Assembly: GCF_054482525.1 (NCBI RefSeq)
Contig: NZ_CM137006.1
Reading direction: 5' to 3' (one strand)
DNA length: 64,000 nt
Positions within the stretch are counted from its first letter, which is position 1. Each line of letters begins with the position of its first letter. The notes beneath the pieces are model-generated. The model had not been told where the DNA came from, did not search any database, and saw nothing but the letters and a program-made list of their open reading frames with translations. This document shows positions 2,961 to 8,820 of this stretch, one piece after another. A program made the position numbers and the translations under genes.

Positions 2961-4184
2961 TTATGGGATTATATTCTGGTAATGATTTGATAAGCGAATT
3001 CTTTTGCCAGTTGGTATTTCTATTTCCACCCCATAATTTATAGTTTTTTCATCAGGTAGCGATCTCTTTAAATAAGGTGCGCATGACATTTTTTTTGGGT
3101 TAAGCGTCTCGCGTTGAAATACTTCGAATTGATATTCAGACATTTCTGCCCATGTTTGAATTTTATTGTATCGGGAGAGTGTCGTAAAGGCTTTAACTTG
3201 CTTATAACATTGTTTTTTGAATTCTTGCTGATATTTTAATATGTCATTGTATGAAATATTGGTTATCCTGGCCTCTAAGAATTTAATTATTGTCGAAGCA
3301 ATTTCCGCTTTTGCTCGTAAAAAGTTGTCATTAATGGTTAATAATGTTGAAAATAAACCTTCGATTTGTTTGTCAAGATATTGATCGTCTTTATATAATT
3401 TTGGGGTAGGGTGTTCTTTATGTGAAAAAATAGTGTCACCTAAATTTGCGTCAGTGAAATTTATATTAAGTAGATCTTCGAAATAAAACCTTGACAAGGT
3501 TAGAACGAACCCGGACAGGTTCTGTCCTGTCATATTGAAATCAATAAAGTTGGTTCCGGCAAAGACTTTCATCCTGTTTTTATTTTCACTGTGCTTAATA
3601 TATAACTTCGTCATTTTTTGATACAGGTTTTGAATATCTTTTATATTAGTCGGTAAGTCAGCCTGTTGTTCAGCAATAAAATTAGTATCTGAAAACATGG
3701 TTTGGACACTGAATCTTACTGGTATTCCCTCTTCTACGCTAATTTTAGTTATGATTGCCTTGTCGGGTTTAGGATTAGCGACAACAATGATTCGACATTC
3801 AGCACTTTTGTTTTTTTCGTATCTAATGTTATTAATCTGATTAAGTATTGATTGTGTCTGTTGCGTAAGTGGTGTCGAACTTATCGTTTCAATGTTAGTA
3901 ATAAGACTTACAAGTTGAGCCACAACTTTTGAGTAGTCTGCATTTGTATATGTAGTGTTCGTGTGGCACGCATTAATTTGTTGGAGTTGTTGTTGCGCTA
4001 AATCAAATTGTTCAGCGTTATATCCTTCTTCAGACAATGAAAAATTAATGGGTTGCTGTTCTTCCTGATTATCACAAGGCCACATCGGTGTGTCTGGTGT
4101 TTTAACATTGTCGGTATCTGTTGTGCGGTTATAAATATCGCCGTGATATGTATTTATCATACCTGGGGTAAAGTCAATTGACAT
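2961..4184 (-). CDS. yhiS: Uncharacterised AT-rich protein, YhiS-like (intact 407 aa), with a possible pentapeptide-repeat segment
   Basis: Long ORF in a strongly AT-rich block; RBS AAGGA 5 nt upstream of the ATG; position corresponds to yhiS between slp and ars; central segment [42 protein letters not shown] resembles A(D/N)LXX repeats. Confidence 0.6.
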
Positions 4185-4763: not shown

Positions 4764-5765
4764 TTAAAATAGCATTTGAGTCAAATAGCCCATCAAGATA
4801 GCCATACCTAAGATAACCGTCAGGAATGCAACTATCATCGGTATTCTGAACATTGATTTAAGTAATATCACTTCCGTCAGGCTTGCGCCGGCACTGCCGA
4901 TGATTAATGCCATTAATGCTCCCAGACCCATTCCTTTTGTCATCAGAACAGATGCCAGAGGGATAACCGCCTCTGCCCGGATATACAGCGGAATACCGAC
5001 AACGGCGCTCAATGGGATGGCGAAGGGATTATCTGCCCCTGCATGAGCGGCAATCCACTCTGAGGGAATAAAGCCATAAATAAAAGAGCCTATTAATACC
5101 CCTAACAAAAGATATGGCAGTACATCTTTAAACTGTTGCAACGCATCTTTGGTGGCTAGTTTTATGGGATTAATACTTACCACAGCTTTGGTACTGCAAC
5201 AGTTTACTACAGGTTTCTCAATGGCTTTAGCCGCTGGACTACAGCAACTCACTTTTATTGGCGTATATGTCGTCCCCGGCGAAGTTTTGGCTGGAGCACA
5301 ACAATTTGCTGATGAGCTTTTACTGGCAATGATATGACGTTCAAATCCCAGGGAATCCAGGATAATACTGGCAAGTACGGAGACGCCGGCGGCGATAATC
5401 GCGTACAACAAGGTAACTTTCCAGCCAAAGGTCACCCACATTAACCCGACGATAATGGGATTAAGTAATGGGGAAACAAATAAAAAAGTGAGGGTCGGGC
5501 CGAACCCGGCTTTCGCTGACAACAATCCACGTAACATTGGGATTGTCGAGCAACTACAGAACGGGGTAACGGCTCCCAACAGAGCCGCCAGGAGATAGCC
5601 TCTCCCTTTTCTGGCCCCCATCATCTGCTGGATTTTATGGTCTGGCACCTTTTGTCTTATCAGGCTCACACCGGCACTAATCACTATAAACAGCAAGGAA
5701 AGCTCGACGGCGAGAAACACAAACATCTCTGCGGCATCTTGCAGCATCGCAAGCCAACTACTCAT
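4764..5765 (-). CDS. ArsP-like (DUF318/YraQ-type) permease with a TPFCSCS motif; putative organoarsenical efflux permease
   Basis: Multi-TM protein with GAVTPFCSCSTIPMLRGL (motif at 5547-5567) and a loop with three vicinal Cys pairs (NCCAPA, VSCCSP, VNCCST; 5196-5303); start refined to the ATG at 5765 (GAGG 6 nt upstream); divergent from an ArsR-family gene. Confidence 0.65.
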   Translation of the reverse strand: MSSWLAMLQDAAEMFVFLAVELSLLFIVISAGVSLIRQKVPDHKIQQMMGARKGRGYLLAALLGAVTPFCSCSTIPMLRGLLSAKAGFGPTLTFLFVSPLLNPIIVGLMWVTFGWKVTLLYAIIAAGVSVLASIILDSLGFERHIIASKSSSANCCAPAKTSPGTTYTPIKVSCCSPAAKAIEKPVVNCCSTKAVVSINPIKLATKDALQQFKDVLPYLLLGVLIGSFIYGFIPSEWIAAHAGADNPFAIPLSAVVGIPLYIRAEAVIPLASVLMTKGMGLGALMALIIGSAGASLTEVILLKSMFRIPMIVAFLTVILGMAILMGYLTQMLF

Positions 5766-5788
5766 ACGTAACCTCATTGAATAAATCT

Positions 5789-5847
5789 ATATTTCCAGAA
5801 TAATCGAAATAAAATTCAGATCAAGATATTTCTGGTATTATCGAAAT
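5789..5847. promoter_or_regulatory. Two palindromic operator-like repeats in the divergent promoter between the permease and ArsR-family genes
   Basis: ATATTTCCAGAATAATCGAAAT (5789-5810) and ATATTTCTGGTATTATCGAAAT (5826-5847); each is ATTTC-N10-GAAAT. Confidence 0.4.
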
Positions 5848-5872
5848 ATCAACCAGACAAAGGGGGTGTCAT

Positions 5873-6193
5873 ATGCAGTTGGAAGAAGTTGCTAAAGCGC
5901 TGAAAGAGCTAGGTCACCCGACCCGTTTGTTCATATTCAAACACCTGGTCAAAGCGGGGGAACAAGGCTTGCCGGTCGGTGAGTTGCAAAAGCAGCTTGG
6001 GATACCCGGCTCTACACTCAGTCACCATATCTCAGCACTGGTATCGGTAGGGCTGGTCAAACAAAACCGTGAGAGTCGAACGCTGATGTGTGTTTCGCAA
6101 TACGCAATGCTGGAAGCGATAATTGAATTCTTACGCGAGGAGTGCTGCGTAAATAGCAAAACACATGGCGAAGGGGCCACGAAGAACAAATAA
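5873..6193 (+). CDS. ArsR/SmtB-family metalloregulator with C-terminal vicinal cysteines (Cys91-Cys92)
   Basis: 106 aa; HTH region GELQKQLGIPGSTLSHHISALVSVGLV; lacks the ELCVCDL-type site of canonical ArsR but has REECCVNS near the C-terminus; divergent from the permease. Confidence 0.7.
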   Translation: MQLEEVAKALKELGHPTRLFIFKHLVKAGEQGLPVGELQKQLGIPGSTLSHHISALVSVGLVKQNRESRTLMCVSQYAMLEAIIEFLREECCVNSKTHGEGATKNK

Positions 6194-6210
6194 GGGGGCA
6201 TATCCCCCTT
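6192..6210. terminator. Bidirectional terminator hairpin between the convergent ArsR-family gene and arsC
   Basis: AAGGGGG-catat-CCCCCTT flanked by A/T runs, in the 20 bp gap between the two stops. Confidence 0.5.
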
Positions 6211-6213
6211 TAG

Positions 6214-6639
6214 CTATTTCAGGCGTTTACCCGCTTCATCAACCACTTTCTCGCCATCTTCCTTGGTGAACGCGCGTTGTTGCGCATCTGGCAGAATTTC
6301 CAGCACCACTTCTGAAGGGCGGCACAGGCGAGTTCCCAGCGGCGTCACCACAATCGGGCGATTAATCAGAATCGGGTGCTGAAGCATAAAGTCGATTAAC
6401 CGATCGTCAGTAAATTTATCTTCTGCAAGGCCCAGTTCCTCATACGGCTCGACGTTTTTACGCAGCAGCGCGCGTACGGAAATCCCCATATCGGCAATGA
6501 GTTTGACCAGTTCATCACGCGTCGGTGGGGTTTCCAGATAATAGACAATGGTCGGTTCTGTGCCGCTGTTGCGGATCATCTCCAGCGTATTTCGCGACGT
6601 GCCGCAGGCTGGGTTGTGATAAATGGTAATGTTGCTCAT
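6214..6639 (-). CDS. arsC: Arsenate reductase
   Basis: 141 aa ORF starting MSNITIYHNPACGTSRNTLEMIR; last gene of arsRBC. Confidence 0.9.
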   Translation of the reverse strand: MSNITIYHNPACGTSRNTLEMIRNSGTEPTIVYYLETPPTRDELVKLIADMGISVRALLRKNVEPYEELGLAEDKFTDDRLIDFMLQHPILINRPIVVTPLGTRLCRPSEVVLEILPDAQQRAFTKEDGEKVVDEAGKRLK

Positions 6640-6651
6640 ATCGGTATCTCA

Positions 6652-7941
6652 TTACAAAGTGAAAGAGAGGCGTAGCGCCAGCGCAGCCAGCGTTACAAAC
6701 AGCACAGGCAGGGTCATGATAATCCCTGTACGGAAGTAATATCCCCAGCTGATAGTCATATTCTTCTGCGAAAGTACGTGCAGCCAGAGTAGCGTAGCCA
6801 GGCTACCAATTGGGGTAATTTTCGGCCCCAAATCGCAGCCAATCACGTTGGCATAAACCATCGCTTCTTTGATAACGCCAGATGCCGTGCTGCCATCAAT
6901 GGACAACGCGCCAACCAGTACCGTCGGCATATTGTTCATAATAGAAGAGAGGAAGGCGGTGAGGAATCCGGTGCCGAGCGTCGCGGCCCACAGGCCGTTT
7001 TCCGCCAGCACGTTGAGTACGCCAGAAAGATATTCCGTTAGTCCGGCATTGCGCAGGCCATAAACCACCAGATACATGCCGAGCGAGAAGATGACAATCT
7101 GCCAGGGCGCACCGCGTAGCACCTTACCCGTATTAATCGCATGACCGCGTTTAGCGACGACAAATAATATCAACGCGCCCACTGCCGCAATGGCGCTGAC
7201 CGGAATGCCGAGCGGTTCCAGGACGAAAAATCCCACCAGCAGAAGCAGTAAAACAACCCAGCCAGTTTTGAACGTAGCAGGATCTTTAATCGCTTCTGCG
7301 GGAGATTTCAGCAGCGCCATGTCGTAGTTCTGCGGAATATCTTTGCGGAAATAGAGATGCAACATCACCAGCGTGGCAACAATCGCGGCGATATCCACCG
7401 GCACCATCACCGAGGCATATTCGCGAAAGCCGAGGCCAAAGAAATCTGCGGAAACGATATTCACCAGGTTGGAGACAATAAGCGGCAGGCTGGCGGTATC
7501 GGCAATGAATCCGGCCGCCATCACGAACGCCAGCGTAGTGCCTTTACTGAACCCTAAAGCCAGCAGCATGGCGATGACAATTGGCGTTAAAATCAGCGCC
7601 GCACCATCATTGGCAAACAGAGCTGCAACGGCAGCACCGAGCAGGACAATCCAGGTGAACAGCAAGCGACCGCGTCCATTGCCCCAGCGTGAGACGTGCA
7701 GCGCTGCCCATTCAAAAAAGCCGGACTCATCCAGCAGCAGGCTGATGATAATAACGGCAATAAACGCAGCCGTCGCGTTCCAGACGATATTCCACACCAC
7801 CGGAATATCACCCGGATGTACCACGCCCGTAACTAACGCCAGTACTGCGCCGAGTGTTGCACTCCAGCCGATGCCTAAACCTTTCGGCTGCCAGATAACC
7901 AATACGATGGTCAGGACAAAGATAGCGCCTGCCAGTAACAT
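6652..7941 (-). CDS. arsB: Arsenite efflux pump ArsB
   Basis: Start refined to [13 protein letters not shown] (GGGAGG RBS 4 nt upstream), giving 429 aa; polytopic membrane protein. Confidence 0.9.
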
Positions 7942-7995
7942 AATGCCTCCCGGAAAAAACACATGTGCAAATCCATATGTGTTTAGATAAATTTT

Positions 7996-8349
7996 TTAAC
8001 TACAAATGTTCTTACTGTCTTCGGAACAATTTTGTCGAGCCAAGTTGCGGACAATCACCTGAACCTTTTCCTGTTCGCATCGCCAGGCCTGCTCAATAAT
8101 TTTCGCGGCCCATGATGGAATATGCGGTGATAAGCGGTAATGAACCCACTTACCCTGCTTGCGATCCAGCAATAGCCCACTTTCACGCAGCAATGCCAGG
8201 TGGCGGGATATCTTGGGCTGCGACTGATCGAGGGCAGTGCAGAGATCGCAGACGCATAATTCTCCCAGCTCGCTGAGCAGTAAAACGATGCCCAGACGGG
8301 TTTCATCAGCAAGAATTTTGAACAGTTGGATGGGTAACAGAAATGACAT
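7996..8349 (-). CDS. arsR: Arsenical resistance operon repressor ArsR
   Basis: 117 aa with the metalloid-binding ELCVCDLC motif in the HTH region. Confidence 0.9.
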   Translation of the reverse strand: MSFLLPIQLFKILADETRLGIVLLLSELGELCVCDLCTALDQSQPKISRHLALLRESGLLLDRKQGKWVHYRLSPHIPSWAAKIIEQAWRCEQEKVQVIVRNLARQNCSEDSKNICS

Positions 8350-8500
8350 ATTGCGCTCCTGATTGTTGCAGGTAGTGTCTCTCTTCGAAGCGGATAAGTC
8401 AAAAATATATATGGTTTAACGAATGTGTATGTGCAGAGGAAGGTAATAGGTGTGAATTTTGAGTTGGCTATTTATTTGAAAGGAGGTCTGAATCAGGACG

Positions 8501-8586
8501 TAAAAAAACCGACTTTGCGTCGGTTTTTTACTTTCCAGCCCTGAGTTGGTGGCTCTGGCCGGAGTGAGAATGCCCACATCTAACGG
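8501..8586 (-). ncRNA. agrB: Antisense sRNA of the dinQ locus, copy proximal to arsR (agrB-like)
   Basis: About 90 bp repeat unit; 33 nt (GCTCTGGCCGGAGTGAGAATGCCCACATCTAAC) identical to a segment of the dinQ leader at 8986-9018; ends in an intrinsic terminator (stem CCGAC/GTCGG flanked by A7/T6); agrA/agrB assignment from recalled K-12 order. Confidence 0.5.
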
Positions 8587-8734
8587 TTCAATACTATTAG
8601 CCAGTGGCTAACATTGCAAGCGTTAGCGATTTCTTCAGCTGGCGAAGGGACAGTTTGCTATACATGTTGGTGAAAGAGGATTTATATACTTTCATCGGGT
8701 CGCTGCCGTACCAGGCCTTGTCCGAATCCGGACG

Positions 8735-8820
8735 TAAAAAAACCGACTTCGCGTCGGTTTTTTACTTTGCAGCCCAGAGTTGGTGGCTCTGGCTGGAGTG
8801 AGAATGCCATCATCTAACGC
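8735..8820 (-). ncRNA. agrA: Antisense sRNA of the dinQ locus, second copy (agrA-like)
   Basis: Second copy 234 bp from the first, with several mismatches to dinQ in the complementary segment; same terminator structure. Confidence 0.5.

Follow-up and report, generated by a model that had tools for sequence, protein, structure and literature searches.

Transport by the ArsP permease of Campylobacter jejuni reportedly requires two conserved cysteines. Placed in the Pfam family PF03773 by name and literature, this protein exports trivalent organoarsenicals and reportedly does not extrude As(III) (review, PMC6205960). One of its transmembrane (TM) segments contains a conserved C(S/T)C motif (PMC4435449). 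Its gene is not divergent from a two-Cys ArsR gene but forms part of an arsP-arsR-arsC-acr3 operon under the control of an ArsR that is inducible by As(III) and As(V) (PMC3598800). All ArsP homologues have C(S/T)C, and in those of "cluster 2" it is preceded by tPF (PMC4435449). Castillo and Saier divided ArsP proteins into two types: in one, a hydrophilic insertion separates TM segments 4 and 5, and the other, of approximately 300 amino acids, lacks the Cys-rich insertion. In 2010 they noted an Aeromonas/Escherichia coli/Yersinia ArsP cluster encoded in arsA-containing operons (PMC2963123). Here, we compare these systems with a gene pair in a 64,000-nucleotide stretch of an E. coli chromosome (GCF_054482525.1, contig NZ_CM137006.1; referred to below as the window), in which a permease gene of the same PF03773 family and a gene for an ArsR/SmtB-family regulator are transcribed divergently next to the arsRBC operon.

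The most informative comparison is with the arsR-arsP pair of Shewanella putrefaciens 200. Its regulator, SpArsR, lacks a third cysteine and responds to methylarsenite (MAs(III)) and not to As(III) (PMC11868830; PMC13236881). In an E. coli reporter that combined SpArsR with the arsP promoter, which comprised the 222 bp upstream of arsP (Sput200_1226), beside arsR (Sput200_1227), 1 μM trivalent monomethylarsenic (MMAs(III)) gave 73% of full derepression and 50 μM As(III) gave 9%, while the reporter was silent to pentavalent monomethyl- and dimethylarsenic (MMAs(V) and DMAs(V)) and to trivalent dimethylarsenic (DMAs(III)) (PMC12124457).

Based on the comparisons reported here, we propose that the E. 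coli pair is probably a self-contained unit for the sensing and efflux of trivalent arsenicals, the orthologue of the S. putrefaciens arsR(SpArsR)-arsP pair, in which the regulator would repress through its operators, be released by a methylarsenite-type compound, and thereby permit export. An initial annotation of the locus, made from its sequence, had recognized an ArsR-like regulator with C-terminal vicinal cysteines beside an ArsP-like permease and had suggested that they form an organoarsenical unit. Both open reading frames (ORFs) proved to be intact, and the features of the pair are as follows, with the evidence in parentheses.

4764 to 5777, minus strand: permease gene, PF03773/ArsP_1, RefSeq WP_000100283.1 (ORF, Pfam, RefSeq)
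5160 to 5342, minus strand: hydrophilic, Cys-rich, disordered loop between TM4 and TM5 (sequence; model confidence of ~50)
5547 to 5567, minus strand: TPFCSCS codons, residues 71 to 77, with Cys74 and Cys76 (sequence, alignment, model)
5766 to 5872, no strand: divergent promoter/operator region, 107 bp (repeats, alignment)
5789 to 5825 and 5826 to 5862, no strand: tandem 37-nucleotide repeats (each with ATTTC-N10-GAAAT)
5791 to 5810, no strand: predicted operator O1, permease proximal, ATTTCCAGAATAATCGAAAT (inverted repeat ATTTC-N10-GAAAT)
5828 to 5847, no strand: predicted operator O2, regulator proximal, ATTTCTGGTATTATCGAAAT (inverted repeat, cross-species alignment)
5873 to 6193, plus strand: ArsR/SmtB-family regulator of the SpArsR/AfArsR type, 106 amino acids, WP_001175592.1 (ORF, Pfam, NCBIfam, PDB)

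The regulator matched the Pfam helix-turn-helix families HTH_20 (E value, 2.9e-14) and HTH_5 (1.6e-6) and scored 61.6 bits with the NCBIfam model HTH_metalloreg (NF033788), above the cut-off of 55 for ArsR/SmtB proteins. Its cysteines are Cys73, Cys91, and Cys92, the last two encoded at nucleotides 6143 to 6148; the CVC motif is absent, as had been recognized from the sequence, and occurs in the neighboring canonical ArsR as ELCVCDLC. AfArsR (6J05) was the top PDB match (E value, 3.2e-10), and Cys91-Cys92 align exactly with AfArsR Cys95-Cys96 at the end of the C-terminal helix, which bears out the earlier comparison with ArsR proteins that carry C-terminal cysteines. The two proteins differ beyond this point: AfArsR is an As(III) sensor with Cys102 as a third ligand, whereas the E. 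coli regulator reads VNSKTHGEGATKNK after the CC pair, without a cysteine, and has His98 at the Cys102 position, so that the third thiol is missing. Judged by this alignment, the regulator is an AfArsR-type (type 2, C-terminal site) ArsR with the vicinal Cys pair only. In the literature, SpArsR is the one characterized ArsR described with this design.

The second and third PDB matches of the regulator were YgaV (3cuo) and BigR (3pqj), SqrR (6o8k) aligned up to the C-terminal Cys, and the NCBIfam BigR model (NF040642) scored the E. coli regulator at 38.2 bits and its Shewanella counterpart at 47 bits. These matches, together with the redox switch that vicinal cysteines could provide, would favor a redox or reactive-sulfur (persulfide or sulfite) sensor of the BigR/SqrR/YgaV kind that controls a permease for sulfur compounds. 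However, we consider this reading very improbable. BigR and SqrR need an alpha2 Cys paired with an alpha5 Cys. In the E. coli regulator, the first Cys is residue 73, and assignment as a BigR/SqrR-type persulfide sensor was rejected because the alpha2 Cys is missing; the BigR score also falls far short of the model's cut-off, 155. Furthermore, the surrounding genes in other genomes are ars and arr genes, not sulfur genes, and SpArsR, the orthologue of the regulator, responded to MMAs(III) in a direct experiment (PMC12124457).

That orthology was established by way of a Shewanella homologue of the E. coli regulator, which led to a protein cluster (P0122/P0242) whose S. putrefaciens-group members have 105 amino acids and a CC pair at 101/102. 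The codon-optimized SpArsR gBlock in the supplement of PMC12124457 translates to the cluster protein, MNIADMNVADMNVENAAKVLKELGH..., and the E. coli regulator is 58% identical to P0242 over 92 residues (E value, 4e-41), with all three cysteines aligned (73, 91, and 92 in E. coli; 83, 101, and 102 in SpArsR). In Shewanella sp. W3-18-1, a strain nearly identical to S. putrefaciens 200, the gene for the cluster regulator is divergent from a PF03773 permease gene across a gap of exactly 222 bp, and the arsP promoter printed in PMC12124457 matches this intergenic region; the W3-18-1 permease therefore corresponds to the published arsP (Sput200_1226). This protein and the E. coli permease are 52.5% identical, and TPFCSCS and a Cys-rich TM4-TM5 loop are present in both. 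The E. coli regulator thus combines the vicinal pair only with orthology to Sput200_1227 and a syntenic, divergent PF03773 permease, the architecture found in S. putrefaciens 200. The units are not identical, since the E. coli intergenic region has 107 bp with two predicted operators compared with 222 bp in Shewanella, and in Shewanella a large ars/arr island surrounds the unit and includes a second PF03773 paralogue, whereas the E. coli unit has only arsRBC beside it. In addition, selectivity for MAs(III) is a demonstrated property of Shewanella SpArsR and a predicted one of its E. coli counterpart. Because the regulator is of the AfArsR type and 58% identical to SpArsR, the permease is 52.5% identical to the arsP counterpart, and operator sequence is shared with an MMAs(III)-inducible promoter, the organoarsenical unit proposed in the initial annotation appears to be largely supported; the substrate specificity is what we infer from these relatives.

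The second PF03773 paralogue of the Shewanella ars/arr islands is encoded in an arsC-arsR-arsP-trx-gapdh-arsJ operon. This "B-type" paralogue belongs to the same Pfam family as the E. coli permease and has the same TPFCSCS, but it is 29 to 30% identical to the E. coli protein, lacks the Cys-rich loop, lies inside an operon, and is associated with a CVC-type ArsR. Since both Shewanella paralogues carry TPFCSCS, the motif marks a branch of the family ("ArsP cluster 2") rather than one specificity. Directly downstream of the Cys-rich-loop permease gene there is a gene for a eukaryotic-type glutathione synthetase in L044, L094, and L095, but not in W3-18-1 (L093); the positions recorded for these island genes are 9264 to 10262 in L093, 4918 to 5916 in L044, and 5176 to 6603 in L094 and L095.

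The intergenic repeats that had been noted at the E. coli locus are two tandem 37-nucleotide units, each with one ATTTC-N10-GAAAT inverted repeat. This motif has two matches in the window, both in the intergenic region, compared with 0.10 expected by chance, and weak sigma-70-like hexamers are present on both strands of positions 5766 to 5872. Across 70 loci with a divergent regulator and permease, the window itself among them, the relaxed motif TTTC-N10-GAAA was found in 65 of the intergenic regions, mostly twice in each. Conserved blocks could be aligned across Salmonella, Aeromonas, Citrobacter, Buttiauxella, Aliivibrio, and Shewanella, and the regulator-proximal site is almost invariant from E. 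coli to Aliivibrio and Shewanella. A 21-nucleotide operator core at O2, GATATTTCTGGTATTATCGAA, is shared without mismatch by the E. coli region and the arsP promoter published for S. putrefaciens 200. On this evidence, we consider repression of the divergent promoter by the regulator, by way of the two predicted operators, to be likely; the identity of the substrate is a weaker link of the explanation than repression is.

The longest reading of the permease frame, from the first ATG, has 337 amino acids. The true start is likely the ATG at 5765, giving 333 amino acids; this choice agrees with RefSeq, with a Shine-Dalgarno sequence (GAGG), and with the alignment, in which homologues begin at the residue equivalent to M5. 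The profile search confirmed the ArsP-like assignment, with a match to Pfam ArsP_1 (PF03773) at an E value of 2.4e-52 over residues 13 to 334 and model positions 3 to 293 of 294, that is, over the full length, and with the competing NCBIfam models below their cut-offs. Eight TM segments were counted from hydropathy. An AlphaFold2 model built on 56 homologues had a mean local confidence score (pLDDT) of 86.4 and a predicted template modeling score (pTM) of 0.81, and the Cys-rich loop reached a pLDDT of only ~50. TPFCSCS had been placed in a predicted TM segment; in the model, Cys74 and Cys76 (70 and 72 in the 333-residue numbering) lie at a helix break (66/71) inside a discontinuous TM segment, and a similar break is present in the second half of the protein. 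Both cysteines are invariant across the 56-sequence alignment, and (I/V/L)TPFCSCS(T/S) was found in 83 of the 83 family members examined. The permease shares its tPF-C(S/T)C signature with "ArsP cluster 2" (PMC4435449). It also has the hydrophilic insertion between TM segments 4 and 5 that defines one of the two ArsP types (PMC2963123), and in this it differs from the type of approximately 300 residues. Within this loop, the three CC pairs pointed out earlier are at residues 159/160, 178/179, and 193/194 (nucleotides 5298 to 5303, 5241 to 5246, and 5196 to 5201, respectively); the loop contains numerous CC and SCC repeats, and its length varies in the family, with at least one loop Cys in every parsed homologue and at least two in 48 of 50. 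No solved structure was matched in the PDB, either by sequence or by Foldseek, and full-text literature searches for TPFCSCS and for "ArsP" plus "Cys65" returned no paper. All 120 homologues among the matches listed carry only the name "permease."

Other members of the PF03773 superfamily that match the permease over its full length are SO_0444, SaoE, and E. coli YraQ. The SO_0444 Cu/Zn efflux model (NF033936) gave 108.8 bits (E value, 3e-31) against a cut-off of 300 and the SaoE model (NF040736) gave 85.6 bits against a cut-off of 325, and membership of either group was rejected on these scores; NCBIfam has no ArsP-specific model, and its "arsenic_eff" model gave 35 bits for the Shewanella orthologue. 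A YraQ paralogue was likewise rejected, since YraQ is 24% identical to the permease and has MMCTCCAAP where the permease has TPFCSCS. As SO_0444 is the best NCBIfam match, the pair could be envisioned as a soft-metal (Cu, Zn, Cd, or Hg) sensor and exporter like the SO_0444 branch, with the Cys-rich loop and its many CC and SCC repeats as a metal-binding domain. Metal sensing is common among ArsR/SmtB proteins, and most members of the permease family lack ars linkage, which would also suit such a role. Nevertheless, we regard it as unlikely: the score is far below the SO_0444 cut-off, the closest solved or characterized relatives of the regulator are AfArsR and SpArsR rather than CzrA, SmtB, or CmtR (20 bits with the CmtR model, whose cut-off is 150), LEAIIEFLREECC shows no alpha5 metal site of the His/Asp/Glu type, and the pair is found repeatedly, in differing layouts, beside arsH, arsC, arsDA, and arr genes.

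The distribution of these layouts was examined with one genome per species, a scan that yielded 80 relatives of the permease at 48 to 74% identity, mostly from marine gammaproteobacteria. When all genes within 5 kb of the 80 loci were clustered, the only conserved neighbor was an ArsR-like divergent regulator, present at 63 loci at a median distance of 128 bp. FLxxECC ends the last helix in all 63 of these regulators; a third Cys (CCxDExC) is present in 25, mainly from Vibrio, and absent from 38, including those of Enterobacteriaceae and S. hafniensis, which have the pattern of the E. coli regulator and SpArsR. Proximity to arsenic genes was assessed with arsB, arsC, arsA, arsD, and arsH as queries (Acr3 and ArsM were not among them). 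The pair is flanked by arsenic genes in at least five different layouts. In E. coli it adjoins arsC of arsRBC; in Citrobacter it follows arsC of arsRDABC; in Salmonella it follows arsH, which is also nearby in Pseudoalteromonas; in Endozoicomonas it follows arsDA; in Buttiauxella arsC-arsB-arsR/arsH lies on its other side; and in Shewanella it lies between an ars operon and arrAB. On a Salmonella IncI-type plasmid, the pair accompanies arsA-arsD-sigma-arsH, and the 13 kb shown contain neither arsB nor acr3. Stand-alone pairs occur in Aeromonas, in S. oneidensis MR-1, and on IncI-type plasmids. A rough estimate from genome size, not a computed statistic, puts the share of genomes in which a random gene would be within 5 to 8 kb of an ars operon at well below 1%. 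The pair is thus truly, though not obligatorily, associated with ars genes, in keeping with a self-sufficient unit of sensor and pump that requires no reductase and no ArsB.

The same context bears on a different reading, in which the pair is a sensor and exporter of inorganic As(III)/Sb(III), a second arsenite pump that backs ArsB and is not specific for organoarsenicals. The pair does lie beside arsRBC or arsRDABC in enterobacteria, and on the IncI-type plasmid the permease is the sole candidate membrane partner near arsD-arsA, with neither arsB nor acr3 in the region shown, a point also made in PMC2963123. As(III) could be bound by Cys-rich loops, and the third Cys of 25 of the 63 family regulators is a likeness to As(III)-binding AfArsR. 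The E. coli regulator, however, has the vicinal pair only, with His at the AfArsR Cys102 position; the orthologous SpArsR was derepressed far less by 50 μM As(III) (9%) than by 1 μM MMAs(III) (73%) (PMC12124457); and C. jejuni ArsP reportedly does not extrude As(III) (PMC6205960). We consider an inorganic arsenite pump to be rather unlikely, although it is the strongest of the three alternatives discussed here.

Several observations accompany the mobile versions of the pair. Homologues were found in approximately 995 plasmid records, mostly of conjugative enterobacterial plasmids, many of them listed from chickens, turkeys, and pigs (hits H21 to H60). One IncI-like plasmid (L001, 10963 to 11148) has an arsH pseudogene remnant beside the regulator gene. 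A turkey-derived Staphylococcus aureus plasmid (L099, 4565 to 5858) encodes a tandem ArsR, with CVC plus C-terminal CC, and a permease that lacks the loop and shares 37% identity with the E. coli protein. In Citrobacter, arsRDABC and the pair are the apparent cargo of a lambdoid prophage (L007 to L009, 1 to 13092; L014), flanked by lambda-P/DnaT-like replication genes on one side and by DinI, RusA, holin, and lysozyme genes on the other. In 14 of the 80 marine loci, the pair adjoins a gene for a SigZ-like extracytoplasmic function (ECF) sigma factor with a Cys-rich C-terminal tail, ..QGCCAPV..CKGC; the Salmonella IncI-type plasmid has a distant homologue (26% identity) between arsD and arsH, with the tail ..HVCCHKKMN. 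The SigZ-like sigma factor, recorded at L088 (6309 to 6905) and L101 (4208 to 4753), might be thiol reactive or arsenical responsive.

The window is a segment of E. coli chromosome with 99.9% identity to strain PCN033, and its gene order is chuS, dctR, slp, a yhiS-like ORF, permease, regulator, arsC, arsB, arsR, gor, rlmJ, and prlC. When presence was called for the 1.9-kb segment at a coverage of at least 80%, 2,225 of 5,426 complete E. coli genomes (~41%) carried the regulator-permease pair, for which RefSeq gives no labels more specific than "permease" and "ArsR/SmtB family transcription factor." The initial annotation had remarked that K-12 lacks an equivalent pair. Indeed, the pair was not found in K-12-type genomes, with the K-12-like strain 7A as the example examined; that strain retains 62 bp (L003, 6200 to 6261) with 84% identity to the 3' end of the regulator gene (window 6100 to 6161), followed by a repetitive extragenic palindromic (REP) element. 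Because K-12-type genomes keep this remnant, the pair is taken to be ancestral at the site and was deleted in the K-12 lineage rather than inserted elsewhere, and a recent insertion into E. coli was rejected for the same reason. The features next to the pair are as follows.

6192 to 6210, no strand: GC-rich hairpin where the regulator and arsC genes converge (likely a bidirectional terminator)
6214 to 8349, minus strand: adjacent canonical arsRBC operon, context outside the pair (ORFs, NCBIfam, RefSeq)
6214 to 6639, minus strand: arsC, part of arsRBC
6652 to 7941, minus strand: arsB, part of arsRBC
7996 to 8349, minus strand: arsR, canonical, with ELCVCDLC, part of arsRBC

An Rfam search of the pair region found no RNA family. 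Elsewhere in the window, two AgrB-family antisense RNA genes (Rfam RF02891, 106 and 98 bits) were detected on the minus strand at 8500 to 8583 and 8734 to 8817, between arsR and gor, where RefSeq annotates dinQ. The yhiS-like ORF (2961 to 4184, minus strand) is an uninterrupted frame of 407 amino acids without an NCBIfam match; it is split by IS5 in strain 7A, and RefSeq marks a frameshift in it in PCN033.

Taken together, these comparisons can be assembled into a mechanism for the favored reading, a trivalent-arsenical sensing and efflux unit. A dimer of the 106-residue ArsR/SmtB protein would bind the two ATTTC-N10-GAAAT operators in the 107-bp region and repress the permease gene and probably its own. 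The inducer site would be the vicinal Cys91-Cys92 pair at the end of the C-terminal dimerization helix, the "type 2" site of AfArsR; because there is no third thiol, we expect methylarsenite or another two-coordinate trivalent organoarsenical to be much more effective than As(III) at releasing the repressor. The permease, as a predicted eight-TM secondary exporter of the PF03773 family, would use the thiols of its invariant Cys74-x-Cys76 at the broken TM helix for export, and the disordered cytoplasmic loop with its vicinal cysteines probably captures the thiol-reactive substrate and passes it to the membrane site. We infer repression in E. coli, the identities of inducer and substrate, and the role of the loop from the relatives and the model described above.

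Some of our results weigh against this proposal. Most of the relatives fetched, including those of Vibrio, Photobacterium, Aeromonas, S. oneidensis, and IncI plasmids, have none of the queried ars genes within ~5 to 8 kb, and the third Cys in 25 of the 63 regulators suggests that the inducer range may vary within the family. TPFCSCS alone leaves the specificity unfixed, to judge from the 29%-identical Shewanella paralogue inside an ars operon, which has it too. The E. coli permease is linked by sequence to the transport-tested C. jejuni ArsP only indirectly, through Sput200_1226, which is called arsP in the literature. The sole NCBIfam models that scored for the permease are those for SO_0444 Cu/Zn efflux and SaoE, both far below cut-off, and our literature searches found no experiment on the E. 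coli pair.

The kind of unit described here is already known from SpArsR/arsP, and the presence of ArsP homologues among enterobacterial ars genes was pointed out in 2010. The present analysis adds the orthology that links the E. coli pair with SpArsR/arsP, a conserved operator, the split between two- and three-Cys regulators, and the deletion remnant in K-12. A broader reading can tentatively be drawn from these data: the Cys-rich-loop ArsP branch and the two-Cys ArsR may together form a distinct, widespread, stand-alone methylarsenite defense cassette that is native to wild E. coli and was lost by K-12. The cassette would range over Vibrio, Shewanella, Aeromonas, enterobacteria, hundreds of conjugative plasmids, and one prophage. 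On IncI-type plasmids, where arsD-arsA, arsH, and the Cys-tailed sigma factor are present without ArsB or Acr3 in 13 kb, the permease may, in this tentative reading, be the membrane partner of an ATP-driven organoarsenical pump. Since K-12 lost the pair by deletion, arsenic work in K-12 hosts could not have detected such a cassette.

In conclusion, if the proposal is correct, approximately 41% of sequenced E. coli strains, including many pathogenic and livestock lineages but not K-12, would hold a native inducible defense against methylarsenite or trivalent aromatic arsenicals. The pair would also provide an E. coli-native MAs(III)-type repressor and operator for biosensor design and would give a specific name to genes that are publicly annotated in general terms. 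Such a defense would be relevant to arsenic methylation by gut and soil microbes and, because homologues reside on many conjugative plasmids from poultry and pigs, to the legacy of roxarsone-type feed additives.

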